24,809 bases of DNA from an uncultured Elusimicrobia bacterium (GCA_964359165.1 CAYHRV010000017.1:1-24809), one strand, 5' to 3'; shown: positions 1,905 to 24,720, counted from the first letter of the stretch. Made by a program: numbers and translations. The notes: a model not told the origin generated them from the sequence alone.

Positions 1905-1927
1905 GCATTCCCCCCGCGGGGGAATGC
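1905..1927 (-). promoter_or_regulatory. GC-clamped stem-loop (10-bp stem, 3-nt loop) ending 5 nt upstream of the GltB-like start codon
   Basis: Plus strand reads GCATTCCCCC-CGC-GGGGGAATGC, which can pair perfectly. It lies between the stop of the upstream gene (1997) and the ATG at 1900. Confidence 0.5.
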
Positions 1928-1996
1928 TCGTGGAGGGGCGTTGTTGCCGTTTCATAAGCCCCTTCCTTATTATTCCCTTTCCGCGATGTATTTTCT

Positions 1997-2668
1997 TCAT
2001 TTTCGTATGCAGGTTCCGCAACTGCCGGTCGTCCCCATGTAGCACATCAAGTCATCGTGCGGTTCCACGCAGGTCGGCTGGACGCTCATGCAGGAGCCGC
2101 AGATGTCCGTCGGCGGCTTGGGGCCGTGGCAGCGCAGGGTGCAGGCCGGGCAGACATACATGCAGCCTCCGCAGCGCCGGCAGCTCTGCGAGGGCTTGTC
2201 GAAAGGGGTGGTGATGCGCCGCTTGGCGCCGCGGCCCACGAAGTCGATGGCCCCGGCCATCATCTGCTCCTTGCACATGCGCACGCAGAGCCCGCAGAGC
2301 ACGCACTCCTCGTCGCGCGGAGGGAAGCGCTGGCGGCCGACGCCCATGAGCGCGGCCAGGTCCTGCAGGACCTTGGAGTTGGGGGCCGTGGAGAGCATGA
2401 GCTCCACGAGCATGCGCCGCGTCTTGAGCACCCGGCGCGAGCCCGTGCGCACGAAGAGCCCTTCCTCCGCCGGATAAGTGCAGGAGCTCACCAGGCGGCC
2501 CCGCTCCCCCTTGCCGATCTCGACTACGCAGAGGCGGCAGCCCCCGTAGGGCGTGAGGCCGTCCATGTGGCAGAGCGTGGGGATCTCCAGCCCCAGGAAG
2601 CGCGCGGCCTCCAGGACCGTGGTCCCGGGCTCCACCGACACATCCAACCCGTCTATTCGCAGATTCAT
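1997..2668 (-). CDS. 2Fe-2S plus two 4Fe-4S iron-sulfur protein resembling the N-terminal domains of NuoG/HndD/FdsA
   Basis: 223 aa. Plant-type 2Fe-2S pattern C-x10-C-x2-C-x13-C near the N-terminus, followed by CVLCGLCVRMC and CRRCGGCMYVCP 4Fe-4S motifs. No catalytic (molybdopterin or H-cluster) domain follows. Confidence 0.75.
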   Translation of the reverse strand: MNLRIDGLDVSVEPGTTVLEAARFLGLEIPTLCHMDGLTPYGGCRLCVVEIGKGERGRLVSSCTYPAEEGLFVRTGSRRVLKTRRMLVELMLSTAPNSKVLQDLAALMGVGRQRFPPRDEECVLCGLCVRMCKEQMMAGAIDFVGRGAKRRITTPFDKPSQSCRRCGGCMYVCPACTLRCHGPKPPTDICGSCMSVQPTCVEPHDDLMCYMGTTGSCGTCIRK

Positions 2669-2673
2669 ATCTC

Positions 2674-2698
2674 AGCGGCCCCCTCGCAGGGGGCTGCT
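2674..2698 (-). promoter_or_regulatory. Stem-loop (10 bp with one G-U pair, 5-nt loop) ending 6 nt upstream of the start codon at 2668
   Basis: Plus strand AGCGGCCCCC-TCGCA-GGGGGCTGCT, in the intercistronic gap between the NuoF-like stop and the NuoG-like start. Confidence 0.45.
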
Positions 2699-22678: not shown

Positions 22679-23607
22679 GGGACCGGTTCCTGGACGCGTT
22701 CCACCTGATAGACCTCCCTCTCGCGCCTGTCGACGATGAGCGTCCCGCATCCCGCGTTGGTGAACACCTCGGTCAAGAGCCCTCCCCGGCGCAGGCCGCT
22801 GAGCACGTGCGTCCTGCGCACCCCGCCGCGCAGGGCGCCGATGCAGGCCTCCACCTTGGGGAGCATCCCCCCGGAGATGCGGCCCTCGTCGCGCAAAGCC
22901 TCGATCTCGGGGATGTCCGCGTAGGAGACCAAGGTCTCGGGGCGGGCGGCGTCGCGCAGGACCCCGTCGGCGTCCGTCAAGAACAGGAGCTTCTCCGCCC
23001 CCAAGGCCTGGGCCACGGAGCAGGCCAGGGTATCCGCGTTGAGATTGAAGACCGAGCCCTTGCCGTCGGAGACCAGCGGACAGAGCACGGGAAGGCGTCC
23101 CTCCTCGAGGAGGCGCGATAGGAGCGAGGGCTCCACGGCTTCCACGTCGCCCACTAGCCCGTAGTCCACCTCGATGGGCGCCTCTCCCGGTCCCGGGGAG
23201 ACGCGCACCGGGCTCCTGCGCCGAGCCCGGATGAGCCCCGCGCCCACCCCGGTGAGGCCCACGGCCCCGGCCCCGTGCGCGCACAGGGCCGCGGTCAGGT
23301 CGGTGTTGAGCAGGCCGAAAGCCATCTTCACCACGTCCAGGACTTTCTCGTCGGTGACGCGGCGGCCGGCCACCAGCCTGGGCTCGAGCCCCAGGCGCTT
23401 GGAGAGTTCCGAGGCCTGGGGCCCGCCGCCGTGCACGAGCACGACCTTCATCCCCAGATGATGCAGGCAGGCTAGGTCCACGGCCAGCCCCTCTAGAAGG
23501 TCTTTTCGGAGGAGGGTGGAACCGCCCACCTTCACCACGAATACCTTGCCTTTATACATCCGGACATAGGGAACGGCTTGGAGCAGAGTCACGCCGTGGT
23601 CGGTCAC
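22675..23607 (-). CDS. argB: Acetylglutamate kinase
   Basis: 310 aa. VVKVGGS and VLVHGGGPQ amino-acid-kinase motifs. GTG start with GGAGG RBS, overlapping the upstream stop (GTGA). Confidence 0.9.
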   Translation of the reverse strand: MTDHGVTLLQAVPYVRMYKGKVFVVKVGGSTLLRKDLLEGLAVDLACLHHLGMKVVLVHGGGPQASELSKRLGLEPRLVAGRRVTDEKVLDVVKMAFGLLNTDLTAALCAHGAGAVGLTGVGAGLIRARRRSPVRVSPGPGEAPIEVDYGLVGDVEAVEPSLLSRLLEEGRLPVLCPLVSDGKGSVFNLNADTLACSVAQALGAEKLLFLTDADGVLRDAARPETLVSYADIPEIEALRDEGRISGGMLPKVEACIGALRGGVRRTHVLSGLRRGGLLTEVFTNAGCGTLIVDRREREVYQVERVQEPVP

Positions 23608-24638
23608 TTCAGACCTCCCAAAAGCTCCAGGAGCACGGCCTTGGCCGTATGCAGCCTGTTCTCCGCTTCGTCGAGGACCACCGACCCGGGGCCGTCCAAG
23701 ACCGCGTCGTCGATTTCGAGGTTGCGGCGCACGGGCAGGCAGTGCATGAGCAGGGCACCCTCGGTGCGGCGCATCTTCTCGGCGCTCACGCGCCAGCGGG
23801 CGCGGAAGGCGGCGTCTTGGGGAGGAAGCGTGCCGTAGCTCGAGAGCGCTCCCCAGGATTTGGCGTAGACCACATGGGCTCCCTCGTAGGCCTTTTCCGG
23901 ATCGTCGGTGACCTGGACCTTCGTGCCGCGCCGGGCGCTCTCCTCGTTGAGCCAGGCCATGACTTCCCCGTCGAGGTCATAGCCCTCGGGCCGGCAGAGG
24001 ACCAGGTCCATGCCGCCGAGCACCGCGGCTTGCGCCGCGGAATGCGGGACGGCCGAGGGCAGATGCTTGATATGCGGGGCCCAGGTCAGCAGGAATTTCT
24101 TGCGGCGGGGATCCATGCGCTCCTGGATGGTCATGAGGTCGGCCAATCCCTGGCAGGGATGGCCCAGCGAGGATTCCATGTTGATGACCGGCACCGTGGA
24201 GTAGCGCAGGAAAGGCGATAGCTGGGGCTCCTTTCTATCCTCCTCCCAGGTCTTCCCCGAGGGGAAGGCGCGCAGGGCCACCGCGTCGCAATAGCGACCG
24301 AGCACCGGGACCGCGTCCTTGAGATGCTCGGTGGCGGAGCCGTCCATGACCGCGCCGTCGCGGCTCTCCATGTTCCAAGTCCCCTGGCCGAAGAACAGCG
24401 TCACCGGATGGGCCCCCAGCGAGGCGGCCGCGACCTCGAAGGAGACCTGGGTGCGCAGGGAGGGGTTCATGAAGCAGAAGGCGAGGGACTTTCCCCGGAG
24501 CGGGAGGTCCTTGGGCGGCGCGGCCTTGAGTTTTCGGGCGAGGGCGACGAGCTTCTCCACGCCTTCCCGGCCCCAGTCCCGCAGATCGGCGAAATGCCGG
24601 AGTCCGGTCGATTTTCCAGAAATTACCGAGGTGGTCAT
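23604..24638 (-). CDS. Ornithine/acetylornithine carbamoyltransferase-family enzyme with atypical motifs (possible N-acyl-ornithine transcarbamylase, ArgF'-like)
   Basis: 344 aa from the ATG at 24638 (AGGAG RBS). HPCQ and HCLP motifs are present. The carbamoyl-phosphate motif reads SLRTQ instead of STRTR, and no DxxxSMG motif was found. It is co-operonic with an M20 deacetylase. Confidence 0.7.
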   Translation of the reverse strand: MTTSVISGKSTGLRHFADLRDWGREGVEKLVALARKLKAAPPKDLPLRGKSLAFCFMNPSLRTQVSFEVAAASLGAHPVTLFFGQGTWNMESRDGAVMDGSATEHLKDAVPVLGRYCDAVALRAFPSGKTWEEDRKEPQLSPFLRYSTVPVINMESSLGHPCQGLADLMTIQERMDPRRKKFLLTWAPHIKHLPSAVPHSAAQAAVLGGMDLVLCRPEGYDLDGEVMAWLNEESARRGTKVQVTDDPEKAYEGAHVVYAKSWGALSSYGTLPPQDAAFRARWRVSAEKMRRTEGALLMHCLPVRRNLEIDDAVLDGPGSVVLDEAENRLHTAKAVLLELLGGLK

Positions 24639-24703
24639 GATTTTTCTCCTAGAATCTCCAAGATCAAGCAACTGCGGGACTTAGCCCCCTCAGAACGCAC
24701 TCG

Positions 24704-24720
24704 CCTCCCCGCGGGGGAGG
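24704..24720 (-). promoter_or_regulatory. GC hairpin CCTCCCC-GCG-GGGGAGG between an upstream partial gene and the transcarbamylase gene
   Basis: Perfect 7-bp stem, 3-nt loop, same core as the other three hairpins. It lies 12 nt downstream of the upstream stop. Confidence 0.4.

Follow-up and report, generated by a model that had tools for sequence, protein, structure and literature searches.

A family of 72–75-nt intercistronic repeat units with a common architecture is present at operon junctions of Elusimicrobia, directly before start codons. Two copies, W1 and W2, lie in the window, the whole 24,809-nt stretch of DNA from an uncultured Elusimicrobia bacterium that was analyzed, where they contain the first two of four C-run/G-run hairpins (sites 1–4). 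We consider it likely that sites 1 and 2 represent an intercistronic repeat of the MIRU-like kind that serves as a translational relay, and that the hairpins of sites 3 and 4 are ordinary GC stem-loops unrelated to it.

The window has a GC content of 65% and an intergenic share of 7.8%. All four hairpins, which were reported in an earlier note on this DNA, are present, intergenic, and located in minus-strand gene clusters. The site 1 hairpin (1904–1928, minus strand) has 11 perfect pairs, formed by arms AGCATTCCCCC and GGGGGAATGCT around a GCG loop. The site 2 hairpin (2674–2698, minus strand) has 10 pairs and one A·C mismatch, also with a GCG loop (AGC-A-GCCCCCT/GCG/AGGGGGC-C-GCT). The hairpins of site 3, in the leader of a Cyc2-like gene (13764–13780, minus strand; CGCACCC/GCG/GGGTGCG), and site 4, after an argC-like gene (24704–24720, minus strand; CCTCCCC/GCG/GGGGAGG), have 7 bp each. 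The earlier note placed all four immediately before start codons. This is correct for sites 1 and 2, whose hairpins end 4 and 6 nt before the ATG, but not for the other two. Site 3 is separated from the ATG at 13742 by ~22 nt that include a separate SD (GGAGGG). Site 4 follows the argC-like stop codon at a distance of ~20 nt, and the next ATG (24638) is ~66 nt downstream of the hairpin. A 23-codon ORF at site 4 has a start codon that overlaps the upstream stop codon as ATGA. RNA folding of the junctions, which the same note proposed, gave low z-scores for sites 1 and 2 (−2.7 and −2.8) and −1.8 for site 4, but the site 3 junction (−0.2; unrounded, −0.16) folded no better than shuffled sequences. 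Sites 1–3 were absent from the list of a scan for intrinsic terminators (range 1–14000), and direct reading revealed no T-run 3′ of the stem at any of the four sites. cmscan of the whole window (E ≤ 1) gave no Rfam family match for the hairpins; it returned two weak unrelated matches, one sul1-like (20618–20677) and one sX7-like (18141–18242).

The suggestion that the four sites are independent members of one family, defined by a CCCC-GCG-GGGG core, was not upheld. In the window, CCCCGCGGGG with up to one mismatch had 10 matches, vs. 8.2 ± 3.0 in shuffles. A loose core, CCC-N0-1-GCG-N0-1-GGG, had 13 matches at seven places, vs. 7.6 ± 3.7 in shuffles, and 22 of 200 shuffles reached 13 matches. 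The core count is therefore at chance level, and the loop differs among copies of the family (GCG, GTG, CTG, and TTG). Four of the seven loose-core places are intergenic, a non-random placement (binomial P ~0.001, post hoc). Sites 3 and 4 gave no nhmmer match to a profile of the full unit at E ≤ 10. With a hairpin-only covariance model (R1), sites 1 and 2 scored 40.9 and 38.2 bits. The scores of the other two were unconvincing: 7.9 bits (E = 6) for site 3 and, for site 4, 18.2 bits on the opposite (plus) strand and 11.9 bits (E = 0.5) on the gene strand. The site 3 hairpin, located in a leader, is an ordinary GC stem-loop outside the repeat family. Site 4 is at most a degenerate relative of the family and probably an ordinary GC hairpin of the 3′-end or stabilizer type.

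W1 separates the Fer2/4Fe-4S gene from the GltB-like gene. The W1 mini-ORF (1902–2000, minus strand; 32 codons and a stop codon) begins with an ATG (2000–1998) that overlaps the Fer2 stop codon TGA (1999–1997), and ends with a TGA (1904–1902) 1 nt ahead of the GltB-like ATG (1900). The 32-codon frame is also open in the relative L014. An internal initiation module (1947–1968, minus strand) consists of SD-like AAGGAAGGGG (1968–1959), spacer CTT, and ATGAAACGG (1955–1947). W2 is a single 75-nt unit at the ATGA junction of the NuoF-like and Fer2 genes (2669–2743, minus strand), with the direct repeat ATATGAA on both sides. Its mini-ORF (2743–2672, minus strand; 23 codons and TGA) begins with an ATG that overlaps the NuoF-like stop codon (2742–2740) and ends 3 nt before the Fer2 ATG (2668); ATGAAACGG is located at 2717–2725 of the same strand. 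This sequence occurs only twice in the window, each time 23–24 nt before the C-run of a family hairpin. From ATG to TGA the two units have equal length (54 nt), and 35 of 54 ungapped positions are identical, ATGAAACGG included. In both, the T of the stop codon is the final paired base of the hairpin, which has an energy of −22.1 kcal/mol in W1. The G-run stops 9 nt short of the GltB-like ATG in W1 (1914–1910) and 10 nt short of the Fer2 ATG in W2. W1 (window 1975–1896) and W2 matched the nhmmer profile with E = 1.1e-16 and 1.8e-13, respectively, both being in the seed alignment.

In contigs and MAGs of groundwater Elusimicrobia, ~20 copies were found, distributed over 11 different gene junctions. 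Metagenome contigs were scanned with a strand-agnostic pattern, which yielded 11 matches. Nine of these were true copies, all on contigs from Hainich groundwater without similarity to the window beyond the element. The pattern demanded ATGAAACRG, CCCC, and both runs, and the census is biased accordingly. Viral contigs contained no match to it. The profile search added copies that lack ATGAAACRG (L014 site 1, a second L097 copy, and L112 unit 1). Homologous copies had profile E-values of 1e-10 to 1e-21, and copies outside the seed were found in L105 (9e-16) and L112 (9e-21). At E < 0.01 the profile matched nothing in 75 non-Elusimicrobia genome loci (~1.2 Mb) or in the other Elusimicrobia loci fetched; the lineage of the copies is Elusimicrobia. 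The junctions are NuoF/Fer2, Fer2/GltB, PFK/HAMP, EutN/aldehyde dehydrogenase, KOW-domain (NusG-like)/radical SAM, an unnamed gene/cNMP-binding protein, response regulator/an unnamed gene, tmk/holB, SDR/oxidoreductase-like gene, rpsK/rpsD, and one before a pilT-like gene.

The unit is composed, in order, of ATGA, a purine-rich SD, ATGAAACRG, CCCC, RRAACGR, the hairpin, and a stop codon, followed by the gene ATG. In the hairpin, a variable outer stem is followed by C5–8, a 3-nt loop, and G5–8. The SD and ATGAAACRG form a conserved module, 23–26 nt ahead of the stem; the ATG in this module is in frame with the first, and the short open frame continues through the hairpin. Measured from the upstream stop codon, the unit ATG is at −4 in 8 of 12 scorable copies, at −1 in three, and at +1 in one; the overlaps take the form ATGA or TGATG. 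In 11 copies the offset between the unit stop codon and the gene start is −4 to +4 nt; three copies are in-frame fusions. In 13 of 14 copies, 5–10 nt separate the 3′ end of the G-run from the gene start. Where contig coverage is 2–5×, homopolymer lengths may be in error, with effects on these frames. The search pattern was strand-agnostic; every copy, at 11 of 11 junctions, is co-oriented with both adjacent genes, and copies were found only beside gene starts. The wider search that the earlier note had proposed thus showed that C-run/G-run hairpins form a real family, with multiple copies located between cistrons and immediately ahead of start codons. The roles earlier put forward, a small REP-like element family and RBS occlusion, both pointed in the right direction, but the actual unit is a 72–75-nt repeat. 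Its SD, ATG, and short ORF had been missed.

Filled and empty sites and tandem copy-number variation were observed between close strains. Site 2 is filled in the window and empty in L014, which is ~95% identical at the nucleotide level; the difference is 75 nt with the 7-bp direct repeat ATATGAA. The rpsK/rpsD junction is filled in L103, L105, and L114 (repeat ATGG) and empty in L109 and L115, where the genes meet in a TAATG overlap. MITEs are characterized by terminal inverted repeats around a core and by target-site duplications of fixed length. In the unit, the direct repeats at filled sites differ in length (7 and 4 bp), and no terminal inverted repeats were seen; its sole inverted repeat is the internal, 3′-proximal hairpin. 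A tandem array of three units with a period of 72 is present in L094, and two units are present at the same locus in L112. Copies from different loci are closer to each other than orthologous copies: W1 is 84% identical to unit 2 of L112 and 75% identical to the orthologous site 1 of L014. Absence of the site 2 element from so similar a relative fits an insertional MIRU-like repeat better than a dedicated regulon site.

SECIS-directed selenocysteine recoding was considered because the TGA at 2674–2672 is in frame with Fer2. It was rejected: the hairpin is upstream of the UGA, the L014 Fer2 protein is 100% identical although the 75-nt segment is absent, and 59 of 60 inspected homologues begin at the MxxL(K/R)I(D/N)G motif, without an extension.

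The hairpin covaries. Changes on both sides were found in 10 of 13 pairs, and compensatory cells numbered 32, vs. 9.7 ± 2.5 in shuffles (0 of 500 shuffles reached 32) and at most 8 in slid registers. Hairpin energies across copies ranged from −16 to −37 kcal/mol. The A·C mismatch position of W2 is also mismatched in six other copies. On the opposite strand the A·C mismatch of these seven copies is a G·U pair, and the hairpin may therefore act on either strand.

Judged from its sequence, the unit probably hands translation over from gene to gene. Its geometry suggests that ribosomes from the upstream gene, or ribosomes loaded at the unit SD, would translate a throw-away ORF. This translation would melt the hairpin and terminate beside the gene AUG, where re-initiation would take place. 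The G-run 5–10 nt before the gene AUG would serve as an SD, freed from the hairpin in which it is otherwise hidden. Through the buried SD and the relay, the downstream cistron would stay coupled despite the insertion instead of being silenced. In copies that lack a stop codon, the unit becomes an N-terminal extension of the downstream gene. The repeat may have spread by insertion at start codons, tandem duplication, and conversion between copies, and the hairpin possibly also serves DNA-level spreading or mRNA stability.

More tentatively, and with less likelihood than the relay itself, the unit may be an actively spreading, non-autonomous "translation-relay cassette" whose target is the cistron start codon and whose hairpin has two roles. 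Such a cassette would be a natural bicistronic-design module, with an accessible SD and ATG, a throw-away ORF, a buried second SD, and an abutting stop codon. Its hairpin would be both the recognition structure for a putative single-strand DNA transposase or recombinase and an RNA gate that enforces coupling. If so, even operons that are essential and tightly coupled, rpsK-rpsD among them, could be colonized by the cassette without polar effects, and the cassette might buffer or reset how fast the target gene is translated.

The alternative that survives best is that the hairpins are REP-like mRNA stabilizers or processing elements, which block 3′–5′ exonucleases or mark sites of RNase cleavage between cistrons, with the ORF, SD, and ATG being incidental. 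The very stable, covarying stems suit this role. REPs likewise consist of GC-rich stem-loops, and transcript stability is influenced by elements related to them (PMC3184786). The lineage has further intercistronic GC hairpins, e.g., in the map/infA and rpsD/rpoA gaps of L105, one of them strain-variable. The position of site 4 directly past a stop codon is typical of such elements; family hairpins, however, adjoin the downstream start and not the upstream stop codon. Stabilization or processing also leaves several features unexplained: the conserved SD and ATGAAACRG ahead of the stem, a stop codon at its 3′ foot and ≤4 nt from the next ATG, unit lengths in multiples of three (72 and 75 nt), and in-frame tandem arrays. 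We consider it unlikely, and a translational relay accounts better for the unit.

Considerably less probable is that the hairpins are dedicated RBS-occlusion switches (an RNA thermometer, a protein- or ligand-responsive element, or an attenuator) for a common gene set. In favor of such switches, the spacing between the G-run and the gene start is that of an SD, the minimum-free-energy structure has the G-run paired, and a second, upstream G-run/C-run pair in W1 could permit alternative pairings. The adjacent genes, however, have no common function (ribosomal proteins, replication, glycolysis, microcompartment, and redox enzymes), the hairpins match no Rfam family, the unit is present or absent and its tandem copy number varies between near-identical strains, and its own start and stop codons would be superfluous for a simple switch.

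It is slightly less probable again that all four sites are GC-rich palindromes arisen by chance in a genome with 65% GC, sharing neither origin nor function. The core counts equal the shuffle expectation, sites 3 and 4 are outside the family models, the site 3 junction folds like shuffles, and unrelated Aminicenantes loci contain stems of a similar C-run/CGC/G-run type. Chance is excluded for sites 1 and 2 by their extended mutual similarity, by the ~20 homologous copies at 11 junctions with the above profile E-values, by the covariation of the hairpin, and by the uniform orientation and position relative to genes.

The peptide encoded by the unit is under no detectable protein-level constraint. 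Differences between orthologous copies were distributed 13:13:11 over codon positions, with 21 non-synonymous vs. 3 synonymous codon changes; in the adjacent Fer2 gene the distribution was 3:0:26. A 25-codon stop-free frame has a chance of ~50% in 65% GC DNA and the copies are related by descent, so that, for the relay, an open frame counts for little by itself. The ATGA overlap at the upstream end may be no more than the original start codon of the gene, which the insertion left in place. The least probable alternative, that units encode functional micro-proteins (MKR...PPRGG, 17–32 aa) or functional N-terminal extensions, has in its favor the SD and ATG, a frame open in all copies, a unit forming the N-terminal extension of database protein P0004 and of holB-like genes in L099 and L101, and one 42-aa ORF called by an annotator, but it conflicts with the even substitutions over codon positions (21 of 24 changed codons non-synonymous), a loop residue that is not fixed (R/W/L/A), a P-R-G motif that is the trivial translation of C-run, CG, and G-run in two of three frames, and a single match of the 71-aa array translation among 5.8 billion proteins.

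Among known systems, REP/BIME elements of Enterobacteria and Pseudomonas resemble the unit in being GC-rich imperfect palindromes that are extragenic, multi-copy, single or clustered, and often intra-operon (PMC3184786). They differ in having 21–65 bp, in occurring in both orientations, often as inverted pairs, and usually after stop codons, and in being without SD, ATG, or ORF and not at start codons (PMC3184786). Identity of the unit with REP/REPIN is ruled out by its 72–75 nt, its non-palindromic 5′ half with SD and ATG, its single orientation relative to genes, and its placement at start codons. Neisseria REP2 is likewise intergenic and immediately 5′ of ORFs, with RBS, ATG, and stem-loops, and is sometimes fused to the ORF (PMC3184786). 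It is, however, 120–150 bp long, carries a promoter, and is found where the transcription units of a set of co-regulated genes begin (PMC3184786), whereas the 72–75-nt unit lies between cistrons and has a terminal stop codon beside the gene start.

In function, the unit would be close to synthetic bicistronic design (BCD) translation cassettes and natural ribosome-"delivering" short ORFs, in which a leader ORF with an accessible SD ends beside the gene start (PMC12548453), and to Salmonella mgtB, where an intergenic small ORF promotes translation (PMC8092293). In all of these, as predicted for the unit, the gene SD is inside the leader ORF, and translation of the leader removes an inhibitory structure and passes the ribosome on. 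Those are engineered or single-locus devices, whereas the unit is a repeated, apparently spreading element whose function we infer from sequence.

In layout, the unit behaves like the MIRUs of mycobacteria, an analogy that implies no claim of homology. The passages on MIRUs in PMC12548453 describe them as mobile elements that insert at start codons and whose ORF is coupled to the gene; those in PMC3184786 mention that filled sites carry short direct repeats, that the inverted repeats inside the element are GC-rich, and that the ORF ends overlap adjacent genes. As far as these passages go (Supply et al. 1997, via PMC12548453 and PMC3184786), MIRUs and the unit are both short (40–100 bp), intra-operon, and co-oriented with genes. 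Both contain a small ORF whose ends overlap or adjoin the upstream stop and downstream start codons. Both seem to insert at start codons; filled sites have short direct repeats, and relatives have empty ones. Single units and tandem arrays are found in both, the number of units differing among strains, and the internal inverted repeats of both are rich in GC. MIRUs, whose consensus has 53–77 bp, belong to Actinomycetota and the unit to Elusimicrobia, and the two were compared by these descriptions. The unit has a dominant 10–13-bp C-run/G-run hairpin whose 3′ arm is an SD-like G-run 5–10 nt before the start; it also has a second, internal SD and ATG, and in these details it may differ from MIRUs. 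The MIRU-like kind of element is thus already known, and what is new is the 72–75-nt intercistronic repeat of Elusimicrobia defined here.

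Four hairpins in the minus-strand gene clusters of the window, at 1904-1928 (site 1), 2674-2698 (site 2), 13764-13780 (site 3) and 24704-24720 (site 4), had been described in an earlier note as one family with a C-run/GCG/G-run core. All four are real, and their coordinates were correct to within one or two bases. The core did not serve as a family marker: CCCCGCGGGG with at most one mismatch gave 10 matches against 8.2 expected from shuffles, and a looser core gave 13 against 7.6 ± 3.7. Because both were at shuffle expectation, the family is not definable by its core. Four of the seven loose-core places were intergenic, although intergenic DNA makes up 7.8% of the window. 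A terminator scan of window 1-14000 listed none of sites 1-3 as an intrinsic terminator, direct reading revealed no T-run after the stem at any of the four hairpins, and none of them had an Rfam match. The claim that the hairpins lie immediately before start codons held for sites 1 and 2, which abut starts, but not for the other two. Site 3 is ~22 nt upstream of the ATG of a Cyc2-like gene, the gene directly downstream, whose own GGAGGG SD lies in between; site 4 comes after a stop codon, in the gap separating the argC-like 3′ end from the following arg-cluster gene, and the next ATG is ~66 nt away.

Sites 1 and 2 belong to a minus-strand operon of NuoE-like, 135-aa ORF, NuoF-like, Fer2/4Fe-4S (1997-2668, minus) and GltB-like (323-1900, minus) genes, where each is part of an intercistronic repeat unit of 72-75 nt (copies W1 and W2). 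At both sites ATGAAACGG, a 9-mer absent elsewhere in the window, was found 23-24 nt upstream of the C-run, and its ATG opens a frame of 17 codons leading to a TGA whose first base is the last one paired in the stem. The two sites are identical at 35 of 54 positions in an ungapped alignment. At both, the stop codon of the preceding gene shares bases (ATGA) with an additional, in-frame ATG; the mini-ORF therefore spans the entire gap, with 32 codons at site 1, ending 1 nt before the GltB-like ATG, and 23 codons at site 2, ending 3 nt before the Fer2 ATG. In the five-gene operon of distant phyla, an ORF of 133-135 aa without Pfam match always lies between the NuoE-like and NuoF-like genes (window 4631-5038; compared loci L006, 7722-8126, L007, 6413-6814, and L010, 7747-8151).

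A pattern abstracted from three copies was used to scan metagenome contigs on both strands. It detected 11 stretches: 9 clear copies in other Hainich contigs, and 2 that were apparently due to chance. The 9 copy-bearing contigs were from wells H14 and H41, had 65-68% GC and had nothing else in common with the window. The identical pattern gave zero matches in viral contigs. A profile built from the copies recovered further copies, which lacked ATGAAACRG, and gave no match at E<0.01 in 75 non-Elusimicrobia genome loci (~1.2 Mb) or in the other fetched Elusimicrobia loci. A protein search of genome contigs with the Fer2 protein supplied locus L014 and ~1.3 Mb of negative control, mostly from distant phyla, whose junctions were tight and element-free. 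Among 60 inspected Fer2 homologues, an element-encoded N-terminal extension was present in P0004 only. When a translated 3-unit array was used as protein query, the single match (P0241) led to a 2-unit array in the MAG containing L014. The S11 protein adjoining one copy had named relatives in Elusimicrobia only.

The consensus unit consists of a 5′ half with (A)TGA, AAGGARGG, CTK, ATGAAACRG, N6-8, CCCC(C) and RRAACGRR; a 3′ half with a variable outer stem, C5-8, a 3-nt loop, G5-8 and the complementary outer stem; and an end with TGA(C) or TAG, followed by the ATG of the gene. Eleven junctions were occupied: NuoF/Fer2, Fer2/GltB, PFK/HAMP protein, EutN/aldehyde dehydrogenase, KOW-domain (NusG-like) gene/radical SAM, unassigned gene/cNMP-binding protein, a degenerate copy upstream of a pilT-like gene, response regulator/unassigned gene, tmk/holB, SDR/oxidoreductase-like gene, and rpsK/rpsD. 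Both neighbouring genes were co-oriented with the unit in every copy. Relative to the upstream stop codon, the first ATG of the unit was at −4 nt in 8 of the 12 copies scored, at −1 in 3 and at +1 in 1. The unit stop was −4 to +4 nt from the downstream start in 11 copies; in the three copies without a stop (L006, L099 and L101), unit and gene are fused in frame. The distance from the end of the G-run to the gene start was 5-10 nt in 13 of 14 copies, which matches SD spacing, and GGAGG-type SDs precede other genes in the copy-bearing contigs.

The window (65% GC) is from an uncultivated Elusimicrobia population in Hainich groundwater, and contigs identical or near-identical to it originated from well H52. 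The GTDB representative MAG, 'uncultured Elusimicrobia sp. binchicken_co248_100' (GCA_964455765.1), which supplied L014 and L112, had 94-96% nucleotide identity to the window in the region common to both. The NuoF-like gene of L014 runs straight into Fer2 through an ATGA overlap, whereas the window has exactly 75 additional bases at this junction, between direct repeats of ATATGAA; site 2 is thus filled and its L014 counterpart empty. The Fer2 proteins are 100% identical despite this difference. A selenocysteine or readthrough signal at the in-frame TGA before Fer2 was rejected, since the hairpin lies upstream of the TGA, not downstream as required, and L014 lacks the segment. At site 1, L014 retains the hairpin and an open 32-codon frame, and differs by ~50% over a 25-nt stretch of the 5′ half. 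In an MFE fold of W1 (window 1930-1975, minus), SD-like GGAAGGGGC pairs with GCCCCTCC downstream of the internal ATG, so that an additional G-run/C-run helix forms, a possible competitor of the main hairpin; a GGGGCT/AGCCCC version of this helix is retained in L014.

In the more distant Elusimicrobia MAG locus L006, where Fer2 is 71% identical, NuoF/Fer2 carries a homologous unit with a different stem (GACCCCCC/GTG/GGGGGGTC); because this unit has no stop, the annotated protein P0004 bears it as an N-terminal extension. Other relatives have tight, element-free junctions. At rpsK/rpsD, L103, L105 and L114 have a unit, with ATGG repeated at either end of the filled site; L109 and L115 have a simple TAATG overlap. 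Three tandem, in-frame units of period 72 occupy PFK/HAMP in L094, and two are present there in each of L112 and L113. W1 was 84% identical to unit 2 of L112, at another locus, vs 75% to its L014 orthologue, and the nearest copy to W2 was in L100 (81%). The closer similarity of non-orthologous copies suggests that copies may replace or convert one another. Low-coverage contigs L094, L098, L100 and L101 end inside a copy or within 100-300 nt of one, and L114 ends in a divergent rpsK/rpsD copy (3031-3134). Such contig ends would be expected of a multi-copy repeat that interrupts assembly.

From the unaltered unit alignment, MAFFT/RNAalifold yielded no more than the 6 C-G pairs, since differing run lengths put the copies out of register; the arms were then re-anchored on each loop. 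In the loop-anchored arms, 10 of 13 pairs were changed on both sides. Compensatory cells numbered 32; shuffles gave 9.7 ± 2.5 (0 of 500 reached 32), and sliding the register never gave more than 8. The centring relied on the individual fold of each sequence, which biases the percentage of paired cells but leaves the count of pair types unbiased. Of the C-G pairs, the innermost four were near-invariant, the loop was variable (GCG, GTG, CTG or TTG), and hairpin energies ranged from −16 to −37 kcal/mol. Differences between orthologous copies were distributed over codon positions as 13:13:11, with 21 of 24 changed codons non-synonymous; the corresponding distribution in the neighbouring Fer2 gene was 3:0:26. 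The hairpin is conserved, and the encoded peptide is not. P-R-G peptide likeness between sites was discarded as evidence, since C-run, CG and G-run give P-R-G in two of the three frames.

Sites 3 and 4 did not match the unit profile. A hairpin-only covariance model scored site 3 at 7.9 bits and site 4 at 18.2/11.9, compared with ~40 for sites 1 and 2. At site 4, which lies ~90 nt from the window end, there is a 23-codon ORF coupled through ATGA, and the site might be a decayed unit copy. These genomes contain many simple GC palindromes with a C-run/G-run core, and similar stems are also present in unrelated high-GC phyla. A 10-bp GC palindrome between map and infA in L105 (3756-3800; GGCCGGCCCC-GGC-GGGGCCGGCC) is absent in the close relative L114 (1816-1834), indicating that such simple palindromes are also gained and lost between strains. 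The proposal of a REP-like family acting by RBS occlusion is plausible for sites 1 and 2 but not for sites 3 and 4, and the real unit differs from the one envisaged; observation and interpretation were each partly right.

Several other features of the window were noted. A sigma-54 promoter upstream of site 3 was rejected: the candidate picked by eye departed from the consensus at 4 positions, and the whole window had fewer consensus matches than expected from shuffles (65 vs 80). TGGCGGTTTTGTTGCT (5544-5559, minus) has 2 mismatches to the sigma-54 −24/−12 consensus, window-wide matches being not above chance; its position, within the 58-nt gap that precedes the nuoE-like gene, coincides exactly with the boundary of an 11.5-kb strain-specific island (5560-17040) that is absent from ~95%-identical L014. 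The island comprises the whole block of Cyc2-like, cytochrome c, SPFH, Mo-oxidoreductase-FeS-NrfD and sigma-54 two-component genes; in L014, the counterpart of window 17042-19354 is followed immediately by the nuoE-like gene. A perfect 18-bp hairpin with a T-rich loop (17758-17796), between FtsJ-like methyltransferase and EVE-domain genes, is the window's longest palindrome. The arg-cluster region has a sub-threshold Rfam sul1 match (20618-20677, minus; 30.9 bits vs gathering 36.2, E=0.037).

A translational relay is proposed as the function of the unit from its geometry, i.e., the cassette-like internal SD and ATG, the stop and the SD-like arm. Ribosomes would translate the throw-away ORF of the unit, open its hairpin while doing so, terminate beside the AUG of the downstream gene and re-initiate there. 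Such a relay would allow the repeat to be tolerated between coupled cistrons without polar effects. The hairpin may in addition have a role in the DNA itself or in mRNA stability.

To our knowledge, MIRU-type repeats have hitherto been treated as a mycobacterial curiosity. Finding the same logic in an independent family from an uncultivated phylum suggests that a relay ORF may be a general route by which small repeats enter operon junctions. The units could also serve as VNTR-like strain markers for groundwater Elusimicrobia. If confirmed, the relay would provide natural, evolution-tested bicistronic translation cassettes for high-GC hosts and a direct test of the effects of termination-reinitiation and SD occlusion (by a hairpin of ~−20 to −35 kcal/mol) on cistron stoichiometry. 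Gene callers overlook or mis-handle the units. Start codons were mis-called around the repeat and other intergenic insertions: in L105, rpsD (5126) was called 16 codons short and rplQ (6905) was called short; in L006 (10001), Fer2 was spuriously extended by the unit ORF. A unit was also annotated as a 42-aa 'hypothetical protein'.

MIRUs are short, mobile intercistronic repeats that insert at start codons and have a gene-coupled internal ORF, short direct repeats at filled sites, GC-rich internal inverted repeats and tandem copy-number variation (PMC12548453, PMC3184786; both summarise Supply et al. 1997). Compared by description, all these properties recur in the Elusimicrobia unit. By this analogy, the element is a MIRU-like intercistronic repeat, and thus of a kind already known. 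Beyond the MIRU properties, the unit has an internal SD and ATG, and a stop at the foot of a hairpin with an SD-like 3′ arm. With these additions it resembles a natural bicistronic-design cassette (PMC12548453), and likewise the small intergenic ORF of Salmonella by which mgtB translation is promoted (PMC8092293).
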